Shown: positions 2,778 to 58,409, counted from the first letter of the stretch. The stretch: 64,000 bases of DNA from a virus (IMGVR_UViG_2778261559_000013), one strand, 5' to 3'. The notes: a model not told the origin generated them from the sequence alone. Numbers and translations: made by a program.

Positions 2778-3366
2778 GTATGCAACGGTCGATTTTGACC
2801 AGGTTAATGAAAAGGGGCTGAAATCCCTTATCGCGGCGATCAATAAAACCGGGGTTACGGTAATTGAGGTTGACTCCAGCAACCGCGCAACAACGAAAGA
2901 TGGCGTTAAAGTTAAAACCGCAAAGCTGGTTCTTAACGACGGACAAATTCTTGCCATACAGGTAAACGATACTGGCGATATATCGTCTGTGAAACTGAAT
3001 GGAAAAGCTATTCCTAACGCTCAGTCGCCGGATATCAAGACGCTTGGTACCGTCATGGGACAGGCGGCCCGTAAAAACTCCGCAAAATTCCAGAAATCAC
3101 TGATCGCCAAAGCGAAGCGTGTTGCCAATCCGGTAGACAAGAAACCGGCAGTTAAATCCAACTTTCAGCGCCTGCAAGAAGCAAAACAGCGGAATGCTCA
3201 GGTGGTTGCCGCTTATAAGTCCGCGCAGAATTCGGTGTCTTTCAATCAACAGCAGATCACTGATTTGCGGGCGAAGCTGGATAAGGAGACGGGCCGACTC
3301 AATAACGAAAAGGCACGGAATGGCGAACTCAAACTTCGTCTTAAGCAACTGAAAGCAGGAAATTAA
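2755..3366 (+). CDS. Hdf-like capsid/antirestriction protein (homologue of a DarA fragment), 203 aa
   Basis: Shares the segment KNSAKFQ followed by a coiled coil with the 639-aa protein immediately downstream. An alternative start is the second ATG at 2764. Confidence 0.6.
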   Translation: MCQMTKNKYATVDFDQVNEKGLKSLIAAINKTGVTVIEVDSSNRATTKDGVKVKTAKLVLNDGQILAIQVNDTGDISSVKLNGKAIPNAQSPDIKTLGTVMGQAARKNSAKFQKSLIAKAKRVANPVDKKPAVKSNFQRLQEAKQRNAQVVAAYKSAQNSVSFNQQQITDLRAKLDKETGRLNNEKARNGELKLRLKQLKAGN

Positions 3367-3367
3367 C

Positions 3368-5287
3368 ATGGAACAGTTCAATATCAATAAAGGGGTGACG
3401 ATCAAGCCTGGGCTTGACGTGCTTCCCCCGCCAGTGACTGATGATGAATATCGCGCATTAATGGCCGGTGAGGACCGCTATCTGATGACGGAATCCAACA
3501 CCCTGGAGGAAATCGAGGCTACGTTCTTCTATGACACGCCGATCCACTGGTGTGCTACGGATTTACTGGAGGCGATTAGTTCTACTCGTTTGCAGTTACA
3601 CCGGACCATGCAGGCATTTGTCCGGGCATTGAACCAGAAGCTGAATGGTACCGGAATCTCTGCGGGGAGTGATAAAACGGGGGAGGTGGCCCAGAGCGGC
3701 GCGCGCGCGATCGGCGGTGCTGAAATTGGCCGGGCACGTAACGTTAACGGGCTGCCGGTCCTGCCAGCCATTATTCCGCTCAGTGATGGTCAGACTATCA
3801 GCATTCTGTTTCATAGCCCGACAGCGGAAAACCGGATCACCAATAGCGATACGCTGGTTGCTTTCCAGTTCTTACTGAATAAAAAAGACGTTACTCACAC
3901 CGTTGCTCCGATGAGTGGACGTGATATGACGCTGGCGCAGGTCACCATGAAACTTGCCAACCTTGCAGAGAAAAACTCGGCAAAATTCCAGCGTGCGCAG
4001 AAGAAGAAAAAAGCCCTTGTTGATGAAATAACCCAACTACAGGCTGACAGTGACCAGAAAGAGGACGCCATGAGCGACCTCGCGGATCAGGTGGCAGCGG
4101 TAGAAGGGCAGAAGGCAGATCTGGAGCAGAAAATTAACGCTGTTGCATCGGAAGCGGATTCTCTTTATGAAGAGAATGAGCGTTTGCAGGGGGAGATTGA
4201 TCGGCTCAATCGCACTGGTGGGCGCGATACCATTGCCCCTGCGGGGATGACTGGTGGGCACTCTCGCGCGCTGACGGATCGCCTTGCCAGTATCAAAAAT
4301 CGTATGCATATGGACGGGGAAGCGACGCTCAGTAATGGTGCATCAATGAAGCAATTCATTGGGGACGGCGAAGGGTATATCCAGTTAACCGATCCGGATG
4401 GCAGCGTATACATGATCAAGGCTAAATCCATACAGGGTGTGGACATGGCAGATGCGATCGGCAAGCTGTTTAAAGCCTATAAAGCGGGTAATGTATCGGA
4501 ATACCTGGTCCAACCAGAAGAACATAAACCGGAAAACGTCGAACCTGAACCAGCGGAGGATACCGGTAGCTCTTCGCCTGAACCAGAAGTCTCTGTAGGT
4601 GCATATCGATATGCCCTGCAAATGCGTCCGGCGGCCCCTGGCGCAATACCTGAAGGTAACAAAGCAATTCTGCCGCGCCCTGATGAAGGTGACCCGTATT
4701 ATGAATATGCACGCTACGGCATTGCTACTTACGATACCCCGCTTTCTGATCAGCAAATGAGTGAGTACGACCTGAAGTTATTGCCTCGCGAGGATTCTTT
4801 CGATTTCCTGGCGAAGACACTTACTAATGGTCCGTTTGGCAAATATGCACAAAAAGCTCTGGAGCTGGCCACCAGCTCACCAGACGAGTTCCGCGTAATG
4901 CTGAAAACTCAGTTTCAAAAAACTTTCCCCAATATTGCGTTTCCTGGGGGCGCTGGCACCGAGAAAATGGTGCAGAGCATGATCAATGCATTGCAGGCCG
5001 AAGTCGGTGAGATTACTCAGCCAGAACCGGCCCCGGCACAGCCTGATGAAACGGTTAGCGAAGCAGATGCAGAGGCTAATAAAGCCATTGAATATCTCAA
5101 TAACGTGATGGATATGCAAAGCACTGACATGGCGGAGATCCGTAACGCCCGGGGCAATGTCCGGGAAGCGATTGCACCCCTTCAGGCTGCCGGACGTTTT
5201 GAGGAAAACGAAGAGCTGGTTAACGGCGCAGCTCGCCACCTGGCTGATCTGTTGGTAGCAATCCAGAAAGCGGGGGTAGCGGCATGA
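3368..5287 (+). CDS. darA: DarA antirestriction capsid protein, 639 aa
   Basis: Size, position in the lysis/dar operon, internal homology to the upstream Hdf-like protein, long coiled-coil centre, acidic PEP-rich linker. My recollection of P1 DarA size and operon order agrees. Confidence 0.7.
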   Translation: MEQFNINKGVTIKPGLDVLPPPVTDDEYRALMAGEDRYLMTESNTLEEIEATFFYDTPIHWCATDLLEAISSTRLQLHRTMQAFVRALNQKLNGTGISAGSDKTGEVAQSGARAIGGAEIGRARNVNGLPVLPAIIPLSDGQTISILFHSPTAENRITNSDTLVAFQFLLNKKDVTHTVAPMSGRDMTLAQVTMKLANLAEKNSAKFQRAQKKKKALVDEITQLQADSDQKEDAMSDLADQVAAVEGQKADLEQKINAVASEADSLYEENERLQGEIDRLNRTGGRDTIAPAGMTGGHSRALTDRLASIKNRMHMDGEATLSNGASMKQFIGDGEGYIQLTDPDGSVYMIKAKSIQGVDMADAIGKLFKAYKAGNVSEYLVQPEEHKPENVEPEPAEDTGSSSPEPEVSVGAYRYALQMRPAAPGAIPEGNKAILPRPDEGDPYYEYARYGIATYDTPLSDQQMSEYDLKLLPREDSFDFLAKTLTNGPFGKYAQKALELATSSPDEFRVMLKTQFQKTFPNIAFPGGAGTEKMVQSMINALQAEVGEITQPEPAPAQPDETVSEADAEANKAIEYLNNVMDMQSTDMAEIRNARGNVREAIAPLQAAGRFEENEELVNGAARHLADLLVAIQKAGVAA

Positions 5288-26014: not shown

Positions 26015-27046
26015 CTAATCGCCATCTTCCAGCAGGCGCACCATTGCCCCTGTTTCACTATCCAGGTTACGGATATAGTTCATGACAATATTTACGTTGG
26101 TCCAGCCACCAGCTTGCATGATCTCCGGTATTGAAACTCCGGCGCGGGCCATATCTCGCGCGGCTCCGACACGGGCACTGTGTCCAGACCAGGCCAGGTA
26201 TCTCTGACCAGAGTCATCCTTAGCGCCGTAAATCAATCGATGAGTTGCTTCAAAAATCCCTTCCAGGGCGCGAGTTGATAGCTGGCTGGTGGCAGATGGC
26301 GCAGCTACGCCATTTTTTCTGACACGGCAAAACAAGTAGTTATTCGGATCATCAGCCACACCAGAGACAGAAATCCATCGCTCGACCAGTTTAGTTACCC
26401 CCAGGCTAAGTGCCTTCTCTACACCCGCGGTACTAACCAGCGTTTTCGTTCTGCCAATATGGATTAACATTCTCCCACCGTCTGTACGTGAGATATCTTT
26501 AACCCTGATCCTGGCAATTTCGGCTATACGTAACAGGGTGTTATAAGCGATCCCCAGAAATGCCAGATTACGTATATCCTGGCAGCGATCGCTATTTTCC
26601 ATGAGTGAACGAACCTGGTCGAAATCAGTGCGTTCGAACGCCAATGCCTGTTTTGCACGTTCACCGGCATCAACGTTTTCTTTTCGAATCCGCCGCATGA
26701 CCAGTGAAACAGCATTGCTGTCACTTGGTCGTGGCAGCCCGGACCGACGATGAAGCATGTTTAGCTGGCCCAAATGTTGCTGGATAGTTTTTACTGCCAG
26801 ACCGCGCGCCTGAAGATATAGAAGATAATCGCGAACATCTTCAGGTTCTGCGGGAAACCATTTCCGGTTATTCAACTTGCACCATGCCGCCCACGACCGG
26901 CAAACGGACAGAAGCATTTTCCAGGTATGCTCAGAAAACGCCTGGCGATCCCTGAACATGTCCATCAGGTTCTTGCGAACCTCATCACTCGTTGCATCGA
27001 CCGGTAATGCAGGCAAATTTTGGTGTACGGTCAGTAAATTGGACAT
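26015..27046 (-). CDS. cre: Cre tyrosine recombinase, 343 aa
   Basis: MSNLLTVHQNLPALPVDATSDEVRKNLMDMFRDRQAFSEHTWKMLLSVCRSWAAWCKLNNRKWFPAEPEDVRDYLLYLQARGLAVKTIQQHLGQLNMLHRRSGLPRPSDSNAVSLVMRRIRKENVDAGERAKQALAFERTDFDQVRSLMENSDRCQDIRNLAFLGIAYNTLLRIAEIARIRVKDISRTDGGRMLIHIGRTKTLVSTAGVEKALSLGVTKLVERWISVSGVADDPNNYLFCRVRKNGVAAPSATSQLSTRALEGIFEATHRLIYGAKDDSGQRYLAWSGHSARVGAARDMARAGVSIPEIMQAGGWTNVNIVMNYIRNLDSETGAMVRLLEDGD is the canonical Cre sequence. Confidence 0.98.
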   Translation of the reverse strand: MSNLLTVHQNLPALPVDATSDEVRKNLMDMFRDRQAFSEHTWKMLLSVCRSWAAWCKLNNRKWFPAEPEDVRDYLLYLQARGLAVKTIQQHLGQLNMLHRRSGLPRPSDSNAVSLVMRRIRKENVDAGERAKQALAFERTDFDQVRSLMENSDRCQDIRNLAFLGIAYNTLLRIAEIARIRVKDISRTDGGRMLIHIGRTKTLVSTAGVEKALSLGVTKLVERWISVSGVADDPNNYLFCRVRKNGVAAPSATSQLSTRALEGIFEATHRLIYGAKDDSGQRYLAWSGHSARVGAARDMARAGVSIPEIMQAGGWTNVNIVMNYIRNLDSETGAMVRLLEDGD

Positions 27047-28199: not shown

Positions 28200-29051
28200 A
28201 TGATAAATTATGTCTACGGCGAACAACTGTACCAGGAGTTCGTCAGCTTCAGGGATCTCTTTCTAAAAAAAGCTGTTGCACGCGCCCAACACGTTGATGC
28301 CGCCAGCGACGGTCGTCCTGTTCGCCCGGTTGTCGTTCTGCCGTTCAAAGAAACGGACAGCATTCAGGCTGAAATTGATAAATGGACTTTAATGGCGCGG
28401 GAACTGGAACAGTACCCAGACCTCAATATCCCAAAGACTATTTTATATCCAGTGCCTAACATCCTTCGCGGTGTGCGTAAGGTTACGACTTATCAGACAG
28501 AAGCTGTGAACAGCGTCAACATGACCGCTGGCCGCATTATTCATCTGATTGATAAGGACATTCGCATCCAGAAAAGCGCGGGGATCAATGAGCACAGTGC
28601 GAAATACATAGAGAACCTGGAAGCAACAAAAGAGCTAATGAAGCAGTACCCGGAGGATGAAAAATTCCGTATGCGCGTACACGGCTTTAGCGAAACAATG
28701 CTGCGCGTCCATTACATTTCTAGTAGCCCTAACTACAATGATGGTAAATCAGTTAGTTACCATGTGCCGCTATGTGGTGTGTTTATCTGCGATGAAACTC
28801 TCCGTGATGGAATTATCATCAACGGTGAATTCGAGAAAGCAAAATTTAGCCTTTATGACTCTATAGAACCGATCATCTGCGACCGCTGGCCGCAAGCAAA
28901 AATATATCGCCTGGCAGATATTGAAAATGTAAAAAAACAAATTGCCATCACTCGCGAAGAGAAAAAGGTTAAGTCAGCCGCATCAGTTACACGCAGCCGT
29001 AAAACCAAGAAGGGGCAGCCAGTAAACGACAACCCCGAAAGCGCGCAATAA
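28200..29051 (+). CDS. c1: C1 repressor of lysogeny, 283 aa
   Basis: MINYVYGEQLYQEFVSFRDLFLKKAVARAQHVDAASDGRPVRPVVVLPFKETDS... with the size and position of P1 C1; consistent with the many cognate operators in the window. Confidence 0.9.
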   Translation: MINYVYGEQLYQEFVSFRDLFLKKAVARAQHVDAASDGRPVRPVVVLPFKETDSIQAEIDKWTLMARELEQYPDLNIPKTILYPVPNILRGVRKVTTYQTEAVNSVNMTAGRIIHLIDKDIRIQKSAGINEHSAKYIENLEATKELMKQYPEDEKFRMRVHGFSETMLRVHYISSSPNYNDGKSVSYHVPLCGVFICDETLRDGIIINGEFEKAKFSLYDSIEPIICDRWPQAKIYRLADIENVKKQIAITREEKKVKSAASVTRSRKTKKGQPVNDNPESAQ

Positions 29052-29083
29052 ATTATGCCCGGCATCAACCGGGCATTCTTCCA

Positions 29084-30196
29084 TTATTCAGCCGCCACCG
29101 GTTTTAACAAGCCAGCATCGAGCAGTTTACGCGTCAACCACTGCTGGCCTTTACCCGTTAATTGAGGCGTCAACCGTATCTGGTAGCCATCTTCATCATC
29201 CAGCACCACTTCTTTCACCGTGAAATACCCCGCATTGATGTACTGCTGGAACGGCACATTTTTACGTCCACCGGACGCTATCAGGATGCCGTTCTCCCGT
29301 AACCAGGCAAACAGCGCGTTTTGCTTAAGTCCAACAACCTTTGCAAAATTCCCAATCAGGATCCCTTTAGCTACTGATACCCGGTCGGCAAAATCGACTT
29401 TAGGAGCGGCGGCCACCAGCTGCTGATTTAGCTGGTGGGCTTTCTGTTCCAGAAGCTGCTTTTGTTCAGCCAGTTCGGCAGCCAGGCGCAGAGCTTCTGG
29501 AAGCGTCTGGGGGATTGCGATCGGTTGCTGTTCTTTTTGTCGGAAGTAGCTGTCTTCCAGTTTTTCAAAGAATGCCCACGCTTCATTTGTGTCCACGATC
29601 TTAGACATGCGTGCCGCTCCGCGCTCGGCCCAGAGAATTACCTGACTTGTATATTTGCTAACCAAGTGACTAATAGTCACTAGCATTTTAAATTCCTTTA
29701 ATTTTGAACCAGTTAAGAGATAGTAATGCTTACCTTCTTCAAAGCGATCGGGGTTGCGAGACAAATTTTTACGAATATTCGCTTCATCGGTCCCATACCC
29801 TTTAGCAAGAGTCTCAGTTGTCACTACACGCACTCCCAGCCATTCCAGAACGGGAATTTCATCAGACTGATTCTGAACAACCACCAGCTCCGATTCCTGA
29901 ACTGAAGGTGCATGAATTTTTTCTGATTTAACGTTAGTTGCTTTCATTCTGTGTGCCTCCTTGCGTGCTTCGGCTGCGACGGTTGCGTAATTCAGATGAC
30001 CCTGTTCGAGCAGGTATTCGCGGATATCAGACAACAGAATGCGGTGAACAGCGTTCTTGTCCTTTCTCCGGTAAAGTTGTTTGGTGATCATGAAGTAGTT
30101 GGCCATAACGCCTGGTATATCCCTGGTACTGATACAGGCAGTGTGCTGTTCAATTGCCTCAATCATCTCTTCACGGGTGACTAATGACGTTCTCAT
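29084..30196 (-). CDS. phage antirepressor (ORF6N N-terminal and KilA-C C-terminal domains), 370 aa
   Basis: RVVTTETLAKGYGTDEANIRKNLSRNPDRFEEGKHYYLLTG matches the ORF6N/AntA pattern; C-terminal ...LFAWLRENGILIASGGRKNVPFQQYINAGYFTVKE matches the KilA-C pattern. Confidence 0.65.
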   Translation of the reverse strand: MRTSLVTREEMIEAIEQHTACISTRDIPGVMANYFMITKQLYRRKDKNAVHRILLSDIREYLLEQGHLNYATVAAEARKEAHRMKATNVKSEKIHAPSVQESELVVVQNQSDEIPVLEWLGVRVVTTETLAKGYGTDEANIRKNLSRNPDRFEEGKHYYLLTGSKLKEFKMLVTISHLVSKYTSQVILWAERGAARMSKIVDTNEAWAFFEKLEDSYFRQKEQQPIAIPQTLPEALRLAAELAEQKQLLEQKAHQLNQQLVAAAPKVDFADRVSVAKGILIGNFAKVVGLKQNALFAWLRENGILIASGGRKNVPFQQYINAGYFTVKEVVLDDEDGYQIRLTPQLTGKGQQWLTRKLLDAGLLKPVAAE

Positions 30197-30414
30197 AGTC
30201 CCTCCTGAGCAGAAGCGTTAACAGGGAGGCACCAGTAACTGAGAGAATTGCGCGAATCAGTAGAAAAACGGGCGGAGAAAATACAGGGTGCATCAGGAAG
30301 CTGAGAGCGAGCCTCATCTTCTGTCGGTGCAATAACGAAGTGATAGTGACGTTTCTGGCAGGAGTAAAAGCGCCAGATAAATTCAGGATGAGTTGGGGTA
30401 GGGATAGTAGCCAT
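30193..30414 (-). CDS. small ORF, 73 aa, translationally coupled to the antirepressor (icd-like position)
   Basis: Strong RBS AAAGGAGG; ATGA overlap with the antirepressor start. Confidence 0.4.
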   Translation of the reverse strand: MATIPTPTHPEFIWRFYSCQKRHYHFVIAPTEDEARSQLPDAPCIFSARFSTDSRNSLSYWCLPVNASAQEGL

Positions 30415-30419
30415 AATGG

Positions 30420-30560
30420 CAGCCTCCTTTGACTAAGTTAAGGAGCTACCGCGTGAGGTTCCAATCTCAATGGCGGTAGCACTGACTGGGTTGGAACTAC
30501 CGGCGTCAAAGGGAACCGGCCTGCCTTTCGGCAGCCCAGCCAGCACTACCATTGATCTCT
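30420..30560 (-). ncRNA. structured leader / candidate c4-like antisense-RNA region upstream of the small ORF and antirepressor
   Basis: On the minus-strand RNA, GGUAGUGCUGGCUGGG pairs with CCCAGUCAGUGCUACC as a 16-bp stem with three G-U wobbles, so it is strand-specific. A competing 8-bp stem GCUACCGC/GCGGUAGC and an SD-sequestering hairpin CUCCUU...AAGGAG lie next to it. Confidence 0.3.
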
Positions 30561-30597
30561 GAGCTAAACGCTACGTATGGCCGTGCGATGGCATGAC

Positions 30598-30622
30598 ACA
30601 AAAAAAGACGCTTTTGGCGTCT
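30598..30622 (-). terminator. rho-independent terminator downstream of pacB
   Basis: Minus strand: AGACGCC-AAAA-GCGUCU followed by UUUUUUU. Confidence 0.5.
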
Positions 30623-30753
30623 GTGTCGCCTTTGACATTATCCGGGGTTCCAATCCCGGCACCCGTTTTAATGAGGTGCCTGATAAGCATAAACCGAAAA
30701 TGCCTCAAGGCGCAAGAGGTCAGGTTCAATGTAACATCGGCAGTCAAAAAACA

Positions 30754-30770
30754 CAATTTATTAGAGCAAG
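30754..30770 (-). promoter_or_regulatory. C1 operator (CTTGCTCTAATAAATTG, 15/17) at the pacB 3' end, upstream of the leader-antirepressor unit
   Basis: Sequence match. Confidence 0.5.
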
Positions 30771-30774
30771 TTTT

Positions 30775-32259
30775 TTACTCATTAAGCCATGCCAGAGCTT
30801 CATCAACCTGCGCTTCGTCTTCGACGCTAAGCACTTCATCTTGGGGAACATAGTTCGCCAACATAGCGAAACAATATGTATCCCAATGGTCCGGTGAGTG
30901 CAGGTTGAGTTTTTTCTTCATATCTTCCTTTGACATCACCTTCCATTGACCTGCGGAATTTATCCCGACCGGTATCTTTGATGCTTCCTCTATAGTCGCA
31001 GCCCCCTTATCAAGCCGCATACGCCCTGATTTTACAGCTTCTGCCGCCTGAATATTCGCGAAAGCGCGCATATCGAAATAAAGGCTTTTATCTTCACGGC
31101 TGTGCATCTTTTTACCCCAGCGGATACGCTGGACGGTAATACCATAGCGTTCGTACATCAGATCAGCCGTCGATTTCCCCAAGCCATCGCCATCAATAGC
31201 TATGGTTATGTTCGGGAACCGTTCTGGGTTACATTCTGCGAAAATCTTGGCGGCTAACTGCGTTTCTGTAACGTCTGTGTATTCCAGCATACGATAGTTG
31301 ATTACACGGCGTTTATTTCGCTGGCCGGACACCATCATGATATTAATAACGGACTTATCTCGTCCTGTGCCACCAGCAACGTCAACACATGCAACCCAGC
31401 CCCATCCTTTGGCAATCTTGACCTTTCGCCGCGTCGCCCGCTCAACCTCATCACGACCAAGAAGAAAGCCATCTTGCGATTTGGGAAATTCACCACGTAC
31501 TTTGATCATGTACATGGGGTTATCACGACCGCCATACTCCGCAAGTTTTGCTCGTATAAATTTTGCATCTACAAGCGGAGATTCTTCACTATTCAGTATT
31601 ATCGCAGTAAACAATCCATCAGGATTTCCCGGGCGAATAGCTAGTCTGTGGTGTGAATCGTAGAAATAGCCTGAAGGTCGCGTAGGCTGGGAAAGAAGCA
31701 GAATACGGTTATCCTTACCGGTCAGCGCACCTGTTATCACACTGAATGCTTTATCACTCACACCCGACGCTTCGTCGATGATATACAAGAGATGATCGGC
31801 GTGTTCACCAGCCAACGCCTCCTCATTTCCGGGGCGACAGGACTTTATCAATATTGTCCAAACACCCTTGCCAGTCACCTCAAAAAAAGACGTTTCTGTA
31901 AGAATGAAATACTTCGACAACCACGGGAATCTGCTAACAGCAGTAGCCCAATTGCTCTTTATGTATTTGAAAATACCATCAAGGACTTGCTGTCTTTTGT
32001 TAGCGACCAGAATGACGCGAGCGCCGGGGAAAAACATGATGAAGAGTATTGCAATAATACTCGTCATATCCGACTTACCAGTACCATGGCCGGAGGTCAC
32101 ACTTGTCCAACTGCCGTCCTGCTGCGTGGACTCAATGATCTCATCCTGCTGCCAGGTTGGTGTCTTCCCAAACAACACATCAGCGGCCGCAATCCAGTCA
32201 TAACGATATAGCGCCACCAGCTCGCGCCAACGTGGGTCCGTTACGCAACTTCTGGCCAT
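30775..32259 (-). CDS. pacB: terminase large subunit PacB, 494 aa
   Basis: Walker A SGHGTGKS and Walker [11 protein letters not shown]; size and position downstream of pacA. Confidence 0.88.
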
Positions 32260-33452
32260 TAATCATCATCCCCGTACAGTTTGCGGGTAACTTCTTCGTC
32301 TTCCTCCTCGTCTTCGTCCAGATCCTGTTCAAGCCATGCTTCGTTTGATATGCCTTCCGCATCGACATCACCATAACCGCCTGTATCGACGATATCGGCA
32401 ATTTCTTCTCTACGATGCTCAATCCACAATGCGGCATCAGCGCGGCGGCTGGCGGCCCGTTCTCGCGCGATTTTATCCAGATCTTCAAGTGATGGAGCGC
32501 CAGATGCTGTTTGGTTTTCCTCGTCATCGGTATTGGTCTTAGGAGCACGCAGATCGGCTTTGATTTGCTCCAGCATCAGGGGCGGCACTTTTCCTCCATG
32601 CGCCTCGATGAATTCAGCCGCTTCCAGCACTGACCAGTTATTTTCACGCTTTCGTTCGTATGCCAGCTTAACAATGCCAGCTTGCCCCATAGACAAAGCG
32701 TGCTTTTCCGCCTCCCGGCTTTCTTTTCGATAGTTATTCCGGATGCTGTAAATGGTGTTGATCAGGCTGCTTATCTGCGCGGAACAGCTGTTTAGCATGC
32801 TCGCGATACGGTATTCAGGCGGAGTACCTTCATCATCGTCTTTTTGCTGATCGCGCATTTCCTGCACCAGGCGAATACACGTATCCCTGGCGTTCTCCAG
32901 CATAAGGAGATGAGAAAGAGACTTTTCAAGAAGAGTGGTTTCCAGAACATCGGCCCCGGACCGACGCAACATAGCGCGCGCGGCCTTCCGCGCTTCAACG
33001 TTATCTATCAGGTAATCGCCAGCTTCGAATTCAAAGCGTTCACCATCATCATCCAGGGTGTCGCGTTCCAGGCGATCACGTAAGGTCCGGTGGGCGCGGG
33101 TGATCACGTCATGATCATCTGAACGATCATTTATGCGCTTATTTTGGCGCTTCGCATTCTCGACTGCGGCACTGACAACGGCATTAACTCTTTGTTTTTC
33201 CGCTATTTCAGCCGCAATATGATCACCTGCATGTTGATCATTAGAGTGATCAATGATCATGCTTTTTAGTGGCTTCCTGACTGGCTTATTTGGCTTGCGG
33301 CTGTCCGCAGTCCTGGTGTCTTCTTTGAAGGCACGGAGATAACGACGTGCGGTATTAGGGTTAAGATTAAACTCGGCGGCATACTGTGCGATGGTGTAAC
33401 CACCATCTCGCGCCAGGCGAGCAAAATTCTTCTTGTGATCGTCCCAGGTCAC
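32259..33452 (-). CDS. pacA: terminase small / pac-recognition subunit PacA, 397 aa
   Basis: GTG start after AAGGAAG; contains the GATC-hexamer pac site in its 5' part; size matches P1 PacA. Confidence 0.8.
33073..33259. other. pac packaging site: two clusters of four (T/C)GATCA hexamers separated by ~90 bp
   Basis: Hexamers at about 33073, 33101, 33112, 33124 and 33220, 33235, 33247, 33254, each containing a Dam GATC site, inside the pacA 5' coding region. Confidence 0.6.
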
Positions 33453-33519: not shown

Positions 33520-34875
33520 GAACGGGCAAGCAATCAGCAAACAACCGCCGAGAACCCTCGCCCAATGCGGGCGGGGAGGAAAGGCGGGAAAGCCCACAGG
33601 GCTTTAAAAAAAAATCATTACGGTGTTAGCATAAAAACCTGTATCAATGAGCGGTGACTATGTTAAGAGCGACAAAAGTACGCATCTATCCAACCACTAA
33701 ACAGGCTGAGTATCTCAACGCCCAGTTCGGCGCCGTGCGTTTTGCGTACAACAAAGCTCTTCACATCAAAAAACACGCTTACCAGCGACACGGAGTGAAT
33801 TTAAGTCCGCGTAAAGATTTAAAACCGTTGTTGTCTGTGGCGAAGAAGTCCCGTAAGTATGCCTGGCTTAAAGAATTTGATTCAATGGCATTGCAACAGG
33901 CGGTGATTAATCTTGATGTGGCGTTTTCCAACTTTTTTAATCCGAAGCTGAAAGCCCGGTTCCCGACGTTTAAACGTAAACATGGGAAACAATCGAGCTA
34001 CCATTGTGTCGGGATTAAAGTACTGGAGAATGCCATCAAAATTCCTAAGCTGGCACCGATAGAAGCGCGTATACACCGTGTAATGACGGGAAAAGTGACG
34101 AGCATAACAATCACTCGCAGTGCCACCGGGAAATACTACGCATCCATCCTTTGTGAAGACGGTATTCCCACACCAGCGAAACCTGCGTATCTGGAGGAAG
34201 AAAAGATTACTGGTGTGGATATGGGACTTGAGCACTATGCCATCAGGTCTGACCGGGCAAAAATTGCGAATCCCCGCCATCTCATCAATGCCAGCCGTAA
34301 TCTGCGACGCAAACAAAAAGCGCTATCCCGCAAGCAAAAGGGAAGCGCGAATCGTAAAAAGGCCAGAATCCGTCTTGCGGCCATACACGAACGGGTAGCG
34401 AATGCCCGTGCTGATTTTCAACATAAACTTTCTCGTACAATTGTTGACGAAAACCAAGCGGTAATTGTCGAGACGCTGAAAACAGCCAACATGATGAAAA
34501 ACCACAATCTGGCAAGAGCAATAGGTGATGCAGGCTGGCATAGCTTCATCACAAAGCTGGAGTACAAGGCAGCGGAAAAAGGCGTTCACCTGGTAAAACT
34601 CGACCAGTGGTTTGCCAGTTCGAAAACGTGCCATTGTTGTGGTTACAAAATGCCGGAAATGCCGCTTCATAAACGCATCTGGCGATGCCCTGAATGTGAA
34701 GCAGAGCATGACCGCGATATCAATGCGGCACTCAACATCCGGCAAAAAGGGATACTGGAACTAAAGGCGGCGGGACTCGTCGTCTCTGCCCATGGAGGCC
34801 AGCGTAAATCCGTCGTACAGACGGTTGCGGCCTGAGATGTGGGAAGCCTCGCCCAACCGGGCGGGGAGCAGTCAC
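33520..34875 (+). mobile_element. IS200/IS605-family insertion sequence carrying tnpB only
   Basis: TnpB ORF flanked by related subterminal hairpins: left cctcgcccaatgcgggcgggga (~33556-33578), right cctcgcccaaccgggcgggga (~34847-34868). Ends are approximate. Confidence 0.6.
33654..34835 (+). CDS. tnpB: TnpB (OrfB) RuvC-like RNA-guided endonuclease, 393 aa
   Basis: OrfB N-terminus MLRATKVRIYPTTKQAEYLNAQFGAVRFAYNKAL; C-terminal zinc finger CHCCGYKMPEMPLHKRIWRCPECEAEHDRDINAALNI. Confidence 0.85.
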   Translation: MTMLRATKVRIYPTTKQAEYLNAQFGAVRFAYNKALHIKKHAYQRHGVNLSPRKDLKPLLSVAKKSRKYAWLKEFDSMALQQAVINLDVAFSNFFNPKLKARFPTFKRKHGKQSSYHCVGIKVLENAIKIPKLAPIEARIHRVMTGKVTSITITRSATGKYYASILCEDGIPTPAKPAYLEEEKITGVDMGLEHYAIRSDRAKIANPRHLINASRNLRRKQKALSRKQKGSANRKKARIRLAAIHERVANARADFQHKLSRTIVDENQAVIVETLKTANMMKNHNLARAIGDAGWHSFITKLEYKAAEKGVHLVKLDQWFASSKTCHCCGYKMPEMPLHKRIWRCPECEAEHDRDINAALNIRQKGILELKAAGLVVSAHGGQRKSVVQTVAA

Positions 34876-55292: not shown

Positions 55293-55368
55293 TGGTGGCC
55301 CCTACCGGACTTGAACCGGTGACCGTGCGATTATGAGTCGCCAGCTCTAACCACTGAGCTAAAGGGCC
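55293..55368 (-). tRNA. tRNA-Ile (anticodon CAU, lysidine type; ileX-like)
   Basis: GGCCCTTTAGCTCAGTGGTTAGAGCTGGCGACTCATAATCGCACGGTCACCGGTTCAAGTCCGGTAGGGGCCACCA: cloverleaf with CAT anticodon, nearly identical to E. coli ileX, encoded CCA end. Confidence 0.85.
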
Positions 55369-57573: not shown

Positions 57574-57649
57574 TGGTGCCGGTTAACGGACTCGAACCGC
57601 TGACATCCTGCTTACAAGGCAGGCGCTCTACCAACTGAGCTAAACCGGC
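57574..57649 (-). tRNA. tRNA-Thr (anticodon UGU)
   Basis: GCCGGTTTAGCTCAGTTGGTAGAGCGCCTGCCTTGTAAGCAGGATGTCAGCGGTTCGAGTCCGTTAACCGGCACCA. Confidence 0.85.
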
Positions 57650-57651
57650 AT

Positions 57652-57727
57652 TGGCGATGGTGGATGGATTTGAACCATCGACCCGTTGATTAACAGTCAA
57701 CCGCTCTAACCGCTGAGCTACACCATC
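57652..57727 (-). tRNA. tRNA-Asn (anticodon GUU)
   Basis: GATGGTGTAGCTCAGCGGTTAGAGCGGTTGACTGTTAATCAACGGGTCGATGGTTCAAATCCATCCACCATCGCCA. Confidence 0.85.
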
Positions 57728-58381: not shown

Positions 58382-58398
58382 ATTACACTAATAAATTT
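58382..58398 (+). promoter_or_regulatory. C1 operator (ATTACACTAATAAATTT), overlapping an oppositely oriented perfect operator
   Basis: 15/17 match. Confidence 0.5.
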
Positions 58399-58409
58399 AT
58401 TAGAGCAAT
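58393..58409 (-). promoter_or_regulatory. C1 operator, perfect consensus ATTGCTCTAATAAATTT, overlapping the dmt stop codon
   Basis: 17/17 match on the minus strand. Confidence 0.65.

Follow-up and report, generated by a model that had tools for sequence, protein, structure and literature searches.

The DNA analyzed here is a stretch of 64,000 nucleotides from the virus IMGVR_UViG_2778261559_000013 (the window, with positions counted from its first letter), and it belongs to a P1-like phage-plasmid. In P1, the stop codons of pacB and c1 are 24 bp apart, whereas comparison of the junctions gave a spacing of 1,723 bp in the window. The insert responsible for this difference (29052-30774) is bounded by a point 5 nt past the pacB stop on one side and by a GC-rich hairpin just before the c1 stop on the other. 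All its elements are on the minus strand: a C1 operator, a leader RNA, a C4-type antisense RNA, an icd homologue and an ant-like gene (Table 1). An earlier description of this DNA, made without database searches (the sequence-only reading), had placed an antirepressor module beside immC, unlike the situation in P1, and the junction comparison is in agreement with it. We consider it probable that the insert is a functional second immI-type antirepressor operon, with a C1 operator, a C4 antisense RNA, icd, ant and a pairing code of its own. The presence and homology of the parts, their complementarity, their concerted variation and their genomic context were directly established for the insert.

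Table 1. Features of the pacB-c1 insert and of the neighbouring genes (window positions).
Feature	Position	Strand	Sequence match or basis
C1 operator (Op51-like), CTTGCTCTAATAAATTG	30754-30770	-	15/17 match to consensus ATTGCTCTAATAAATTT; first base 5 nt past pacB stop
Putative C1-controlled promoter (P51a/P2c4-like): TTGTGT, 17-nt spacer, TACATT	30728-30756	-	column-for-column alignment with annotated P1 P2c4 hexamers
Putative second promoter (P51b/P1c4-like): TTGAGG, 17-nt spacer, TATCAG; weak match	30680-30708	-	predicted from alignment with P1 P1c4 TTGACC-17-TATAGT
IsrK-type leader RNA: hairpin 1, hairpin 2 (a1 in loop), b1, intrinsic terminator	30601-30679	-	Rfam RF01394 isrK, 62.6 bits
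a1 target site UUGGAAC, in 8-nt loop of hairpin CCGGG/CCCGG	30647-30653	-	exact reverse complement of a'
b1 target site GUCAAAGG	30629-30636	-	exact reverse complement of b'
Intrinsic terminator of IsrK-type leader, AGACGCCAAAAGCGUCU then U7	30599-30622	-	terminator scan; 3' hairpin of isrK model
C4-type antisense RNA gene: 16-17-bp closing stem, two internal hairpins, GCCA after stem	30469-30556	-	Rfam RF01695
b' recognition element CCUUUGAC, loop of C4 hairpin 2	30505-30512	-	
a' recognition element GUUCCAA, single-stranded linker of C4	30491-30497	-	
a2 target site UUGGAAC	30458-30464	-	exact complement of a'
b2 target site GUCAAAGG	30426-30433	-	exact complement of b'; overlaps icd Shine-Dalgarno AAGGAGG (30423-30429)
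Alternative hairpin: C4 closing-stem 3' strand GCUACCGC (30473-30480) with downstream arm GCGGUAGC (30445-30452), a2 in loop	30445-30480	-	
icd homologue, 73 aa	30193-30414	-	80% identity to P1 Icd, E 3e-41; NCBIfam NF033153 phage_ICD_like, 49.8 bits
ant1-like antirepressor, 370 aa	29084-30196	-	Pfam ORF6N and ANT/KilAC; start overlaps icd stop (ATGA)
ant2-like nested ORF, 287 aa, from internal Met84	29084-29947	-	AAGGAGG-N7-ATG upstream signal
GC-rich hairpin ATGCCCGG..CCGGGCAT between convergent ant and c1; likely terminator	29055-29076		terminator scan and P1 junction comparison
cre	26015-27046	-	
c1	28200-29051	+	
pacB	30775-32259	-	
pacA	32259-33452	-	

The C4-type RNA was recognized by the Rfam model of this family with a score of 77.1 bits, the gathering score being 45. 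Its minimum free energy was -46.5 kcal/mol (z = -5.0) and the fold matched the consensus structure of the family, whereas the complementary strand of the same region folded to only -31.4 kcal/mol. The 16-bp stem that had been noticed in the sequence-only reading, held together partly by G-U pairs and formed by one strand only, proved to be the closing stem of C4, which contains three G-U pairs. When seven class representatives were compared, compensatory changes were observed in 14 of the 28 base pairs of C4.

On either side of C4 lies one perfect target for each of the two recognition elements of this RNA, a' (7 nt) and b' (8 nt), so that the duplicate sites a1 and b1 are as exact as a2 and b2. 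After shuffling of the flanks, at least one 7-mer of C4 complementary to both sides was found in 12 of 5000 cases; three such 7-mers are present in the window. The position of b2 over the Shine-Dalgarno (SD) sequence of icd, the first open reading frame (ORF) downstream, is the same as that of the annotated b2 of P1. By analogy with P1, the principal RNA control would be the pairing of the C4 loop with a2/b2 at the icd ribosome-binding site, and not a hairpin that masks the SD. The code itself is another one: UUGGAAC / GUCAAAGG in the window and UUGACAG / GUUAGUG in P1. For b', the computed duplexes amounted to -14.2 and -15.1 kcal/mol for the cognate pairs of the two codes, and to -8.7 and -5.5 kcal/mol for the crossed ones. 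Since the cognate b' duplexes are the stronger, the window and canonical circuits should, on computational grounds, not cross-talk: the former should be blind to the canonical immI C4 and the latter to the C4 of the window. The duplex energies of the a' linker did not separate the close codes UUGGAAC and UUGAGAC.

Upstream of C4, the leader RNA exceeds the gathering score of the Rfam isrK model (50), is aligned with positions 1-77 of the 77 of this model, and ends in the terminator. With the c4-a1b1 model (RF03163), it obtained 23.1 bits (E 0.0011; 30639-30692) against a threshold of 46.7, which the leaders of P1 and Gifsy-1 do reach. The c4-a1b1 architecture, with two hairpins and a1 in the loop of the second, is nevertheless kept in the window leader, and it is the sequence class that differs. 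The structured leader of about 130 nt seen in the sequence-only reading is therefore real as RNA but is not a single unit, since it corresponds to two known elements, the IsrK/a1b1 leader followed by C4. A 61-aa ORF at 30571-30756 was also considered as a gene; it is without family match, overlaps the leader RNA and was dropped.

Two other foldings had been pointed out between C4 and icd. The alternative hairpin, formed by the 3' strand of the C4 closing stem, has an 8-bp stem that cannot coexist with the C4 fold and is predicted once the 5' half of C4 is absent (fold of 30405-30500). Its duplex energy was -16.3 kcal/mol, a value equalled in 9 of 1000 shuffles. The mutual exclusion is thus reproduced by folding, and an equivalent stem with a2 in its loop was found in all six leader classes (window, P1, L004-class, phiP27, F039 and Gifsy-1), with energies of -14 to -18 kcal/mol. 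In cross-class duplexes, cognate and non-cognate arms were weakly separated (-15.4 versus -12.4 kcal/mol), all arms being GGUGG/CCACC-like, and the only clearly compensatory change is the A-U pair of the window itself (GGUAG/CUACC). To our knowledge, no function has been assigned to a hairpin of this type with a2 in its loop. The second folding, a pairing of CUCCUU (30440-30445) with the AAGGAG of the SD (30424-30429), was predicted with 5 pairs. It is invariant in the window class, differently built elsewhere and not present in that form in P1. Such an anti-SD hairpin is plausible as a model; it is without covariation support, and the part of main RNA control is not attributed to it.

The transcription signals were assigned by comparison with P1. 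Operator-like sites with at most three mismatches number 17 in the window, against 0.39 expected. The one at the head of the insert, a C1 operator already in the sequence-only reading, aligns base for base with P1 Op51, and the alignment includes the -35 and -10 hexamers of P51a. Together with the next 100 nt or so, it can be aligned with P1 Op51 and with the annotated P51a and P51b. The -35 hexamer of the putative P51a/P2c4-like promoter overlaps this predicted C1 site, and the operator is kept in related leaders. Elsewhere in the window, two overlapping matches in opposite orientation (0 and 2 mismatches) form a bivalent-looking site at 58382-58409, and 16 other operator-like sites are spread across the window.

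All the ORFs of the module are intact. The ATGA overlap between the 73-aa and 370-aa ORFs and the ORF6N and KilA-C domains of the latter, both recognized beforehand, were found again. When the 370-aa protein was compared with P1 Ant1, as the sequence-only reading had proposed, the identity was 56% overall, with a similar N-terminus, a different middle and about 150 near-identical C-terminal residues; over the last 335 nt or so of ant, the identity to P1 ant is 86%. The window and P1 share the motif AAGGAGGCACA(C/T)AGAATG at the start of ant2, which falls on codon 84 in both. As in immI, icd and ant1 overlap by ATGA and ant2 is nested, translational coupling being predicted.

At the canonical immI loci of viral contigs (L067-L082), many Ant genes match the N-terminal part (96-98% nt identity) and the ORF6N middle (82-96% nt) of the window Ant better than P1 Ant1 does. 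Because Ant alleles at canonical loci share these two parts, an exchange between the two loci is suggested, and the window Ant appears to be a mosaic exchanged between canonical and pacB-c1 loci.

In order to follow the code across relatives, 79 loci encoding close Icd relatives were collected from viral contigs and reduced to 58 distinct leaders. Three scaffold classes were obtained: the window type, a 78%-identical 'L004' type and the P1 type. The 58 leaders contain 11 a/b combinations, and in all 11 of them a' can pair with both a1 and a2, and b' with both b1 and b2 (perfectly or with one G-U). Within a class, almost all the variation is found in a' and b'. The same matching rule holds for Gifsy-1 and for two lambdoid phages of the Shiga-toxin type, phiP27 and the Stx2 phage F039, one b1 position being a G-U in these last two. 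The pacB-c1 site, with three a types and three b types, has by itself five a/b codes or more; at the canonical site, the types number two for a and four for b. Several codes with matched changes at the pacB-c1 site argue for continued selection on RNA pairing. The covariation analysis suggested in the sequence-only reading thus came out in its favour, both within C4 and between the a/b elements and their targets, which change together; lack of conservation of the complementary elements in relatives, which it had named as a refutation, was not what was found, since these elements are conserved and co-vary.

In one contig of this set (L010, IMGVR_UViG_2698536372_000019), the operator-leader-C4-icd unit is tandemly duplicated downstream of pacB (1647-2230 and 3213-3796). 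Between the two copies, identity is 100% over 584 nt; they recur at a period of 1,566 nt, and the same 42-kb contig contains two more P1-class icd loci (L076 and L081).

The sequence-only reading had left the choice between a relocated and a second antirepressor circuit. The canonical immI is placed between the sim genes and kilA-repL; the module lies between pacB and c1, and is therefore a paralogue at a second locus. The canonical position would be about 13 kb past the end of the window. Plasmid NZ_AP027490, the closest complete relative (99.4% identity over the module), carries a window-type module between the terminase gene and c1, and also a canonical immI with an Rfam C4, a c4-a1b1 leader and the P1 code TTGACAG/GTTAGTG. 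Since it keeps both loci, mere relocation was rejected and 'second' appears the better of the two terms. Three viral contigs likewise contain one module of each kind (for example L052 and L077, or L061 and L078).

The distribution was established by counting the PLSDB plasmids in which at least 80% of 29000-30800 is found in one place. The insert was present in 300 plasmids (94-99% identity), while 314 have an uninterrupted P1-type junction. It is also carried by phages RCS47, JL22 and vB_EcoM-673R5. Among the non-canonical loci of the viral contigs, pacB is directly upstream in 58 of 63, and both pacB and c1 flank the module in 48. In the literature, the insert is mentioned in one sentence by Venturini et al., in connection with RCS47 (PMC6906374), and our search yielded no paper that presents it as an entire paralogue of immI having a C4 code of its own. 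In databases, it is already annotated piecemeal, and the family is well populated and experimentally founded (P1/P7 immI, the C4/CI RNA clan, IsrK). What is new here is its recognition as a complete second immI at immC, and that of separate, reassorting a/b codes.

The resemblance to the P1/P7 immI concerns the order and spacing of every element, an alignable operator/promoter region, the C4 fold, b2 over the icd SD, the 80% identity of Icd, the ATGA coupling arrangement, the nested Ant2 start and the near-identical C-terminal part of Ant. The sequence-only reading, which had compared the layout to the c4-icd-ant arrangement of P1, is upheld by the Rfam C4, Icd, Ant and Op51/P51a/P51b homologies together; the elements it listed were found where it had put them or within a few bases, but it had not listed the a/b complementarity, the internal start of Ant2 or the terminated IsrK-type leader, and had not identified the small ORF as Icd. 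The differences are the location (between sim and kilA-repL in P1), the a/b code, the leader and C4 scaffold, which belong to another sequence class (isrK threshold instead of c4-a1b1), and the ORF6N middle of the window Ant. In the plasmid prophage D6, an immI-type module (NC_050154, about 74.0-75.5 kb) has the same scaffold class, with 88% identity of leader plus C4 over 84% of the query, and icd directly downstream. However, the D6 Ant is of the Rha/Roi type (313 aa) and the D6 module is located beside ref and sim-like genes. Because the match begins only past the operator, the operator region is not shared with D6. As the leader class is that of the D6 immI, acquisition by recombination is suggested.

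The CI immunity RNA of P4 is produced by processing and pairs with sites repeated on both sides of its own sequence. It belongs to the C4 family (Rfam clan CL00128), and the C4 region of the window shares 72.8% identity with the cI region of P4 along some 145 nt. P4 CI acts by premature transcription termination (seqA/seqC; PMC4825925), however, and no icd-ant pair is controlled. In the immI of P22 (sar and ant), a small antisense RNA also blocks translation of an antirepressor (PMC12197685), but that RNA is unrelated and encoded on the opposite strand (cis-antisense), control by the Mnt/Arc proteins is involved, and no sequence homology is expected. The Salmonella locus isrK-orf45(STnc1160)-anrP-isrJ of Gifsy-1 is closer: an IsrK leader that contains a1 (in the loop of a hairpin), b1 and a terminator is followed by a C4-family RNA, then by a2/b2 with b2 over the SD of the antirepressor gene, and all a/b elements are mutually matched. 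In contrast with the window, icd is missing, the antirepressor gene directly follows C4, the prophage is lambdoid and without a C1 operator, and the published mechanism is activation by IsrK in trans (PMC4825925). In that genome (L085, NC_010392), the Rfam C4 model gives 69 bits at the 'orf45'/STnc1160 site of Hershko-Shalev et al. (34131-34329, minus strand, for the whole arrangement), and the sites TTGGCGT and TCACCG are matched between the leader, C4 and the ribosome-binding site of anrP. In a 2025 review, IsrK and c4 still appear as entries without relation to each other.

The immI mechanism of P1 (C4, icd, Ant and C1) is said to have been worked out by Biere, Citron, Schuster and Heinrich et al., and the 5' end of P1 C4 is cut by RNase P. 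The P1 record annotates a1/b1 upstream of c4, where they are called 'putative' targets, and a2/b2 downstream, with b2 at the icd ribosome-binding site; icd is described there as 'apparently required for expression of ant', and complex formation between Ant1, Ant2 and C1 is noted. The account of P1 given here follows this GenBank annotation, a review-type statement that Ant synthesis is repressed by c4 RNA (PMC8546580) and the general background. By analogy with the work on P1, P7 and Gifsy-1, from which C4 processing, translational repression, coupling and inactivation of C1 by Ant are transposed, the insert would work as follows. Transcription would start from promoters homologous to P51a and P51b of P1, the upstream one being under the C1 operator and hence shut in lysogens. 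The majority of the transcripts would end at the terminator of the IsrK-type leader, which carries a1 and b1, while the read-through transcripts would contain the C4-type RNA, to be excised as a stable RNA of about 80 nt. This RNA would pair with a2/b2 of the messenger through b', in its hairpin loop, and a', in its linker. Because b2 overlaps the icd SD, such pairing would block icd translation and, as the ant1 start lies in the icd stop and would depend on icd translation, the antirepressor would be switched off too. When C4 is absent or outnumbered, Icd and Ant1/Ant2 would be made and Ant would inactivate C1; the trigger would be entry into a cell without the matching C4, or loss of C1 repression.

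Several points weigh against this reading. A strict sigma-70 consensus scan detected no promoter upstream of the leader or in it; both promoters are candidates assigned by the P1 alignment alone, and the -10 hexamer of the P51b-like one, TATCAG, is poor. Inspection by eye of the sequence between the terminator and C4 gave no convincing separate C4 promoter. Since a strong terminator separates the promoters from C4, the supply of C4 would then depend on read-through. In addition, the target specificity of Ant is not certain, because its ORF6N middle differs from that of P1 Ant1, and the canonical immI of the same genome would lie outside the window, so that the term 'second' rests on the relative NZ_AP027490.

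To the scheme proposed above, a positive switch of the IsrK type could be added without replacing it. The terminated a1/b1 leader would act in trans, either sequestering C4 as a decoy or activating the read-through messenger, and the promoter burst following loss of C1 would titrate C4 and turn icd-ant translation on. This addition is tentative and we would sooner doubt it than assume it. The window leader reaches the isrK gathering score and has a strong intrinsic terminator at its end, and the a1-b1 gap (10 nt) is nearer to the b'-a' gap of C4 (7 nt) than the a2-b2 gap (24 nt) is. Against this stands the status of a1/b1 in the P1 record, where they are only 'putative' targets, and we know of no demonstrated role for them in P1. 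In Gifsy-1, the Rfam C4 (34131-34214) is directly downstream of isrK, at the 'orf45'/STnc1160 of the authors, and c4-a1b1 overlaps isrK. There, IsrK supplied in trans increased anrP translation about 139-fold, and the compensatory changes G28A/C162U and G31A/C159U support pairing of IsrK with the downstream region (PMC4825925); by their approximate position relative to the Rfam hits, these residues would lie in or near a1 and a'. However, the Gifsy-1 locus has no icd, its authors invoke refolding of the messenger and not titration of C4, and constitutive STnc1160 failed to relieve IsrK toxicity (PMC4825925).

Two other explanations would deprive the insert of the function proposed. It could be a passenger or a remnant, produced by recombination with a D6-like or lambdoid element, that does not control C1, its Ant acting on another repressor or on none. 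The origin of the leader class speaks for this, as it is that of the immI of phage D6 (88% identity) and resembles those of Stx phages and phiP27; so does the middle domain of Ant, swapped relative to P1, and the insert is dispensable, since the P1-like plasmids without it (314) are about as many as those with it (300). We nevertheless judge a passenger improbable: the ORFs are all intact, the six RNA elements pair without a mismatch, the operator is a C1 site of the P1 type that is kept from one variant to another, and the N-terminal and C-terminal KilAC parts of Ant have 92-100% nt identity to canonical immI Ant alleles of P1-like contigs. Moreover, several a/b codes with matched changes at the same site imply continued selection. 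As for the structured region, it might encode a small protein, namely a 39-aa 'Ash family' ORF (30433-30552, minus strand) equivalent to orf45 of Gifsy-1. Its translation, which overlaps the C4 gene, obtains 32.2 bits with Pfam Phage_ASH (PF10554; gathering score 26), a near-identical plasmid has an 'ash family protein' from the Prokaryotic Genome Annotation Pipeline, and tagged Gifsy-1 orf45 was detected by western blot (PMC4825925). But the Gifsy-1 authors themselves report that orf45 nucleotides are conserved and its amino acids variable (PMC4825925). In the same direction, an RNA model that takes structure into account gives the region 77 bits, its base pairs show compensatory changes, and its variation is concentrated in a'/b' and matched in non-coding targets. 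The P4 homologue was first annotated as a protein, old records having 'put. ash gene' and 'cI gene product', and the immunity factor of P4 has since turned out to be an RNA. A protein is accordingly very unlikely to be the product of this region, and the Phage_ASH family may be largely a mis-read RNA gene.

The reading of the insert as a second immI-type operon reveals no new mechanism. P1-like phage-plasmids frequently carry resistance genes in E. coli and Salmonella, and their lysis-lysogeny decision and superinfection immunity rest on C1 and the antirepressors that act on it. As about half of the P1-like plasmids carry a second RNA-gated operon with its own code, immunity groups are likely more numerous than the classical P1/P7 pair, and where two C4 RNAs reside together, they may determine by which incoming relatives the resident prophage can be induced. 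P1 C4, Salmonella IsrK/STnc1160 and the 'Ash family protein' annotation, as a rule dealt with apart from one another, are also linked here as parts or mis-readings of one RNA module. A more speculative extension, which we put forward with reserve, is that P1-like phage-plasmids stack immI circuits with separate codes into a combinatorial immunity code. A private C4 'lock' would silence incoming phages of the same code, a private Ant 'key' would break C1 repression in lysogens lacking that C4, the terminated leader would be a decoy sharpening the switch, and free reassortment of the a/b cassettes would reflect diversifying selection in phage-against-phage competition.

Outside the insert, just upstream of pacA, a TnpB of 393 aa is encoded at 33654-34835 on the plus strand (Pfam OrfB_IS605, Cas12f1-like TNB and HTH_OrfB_IS605); it is probably an IS609-type insertion such as other P1-like plasmids are reported to have. 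On the minus strand, the Rfam threshold for tRNA is reached by three tRNA genes (55296-55368, 57577-57649 and 57655-57727), as expected for a P1-type genome.

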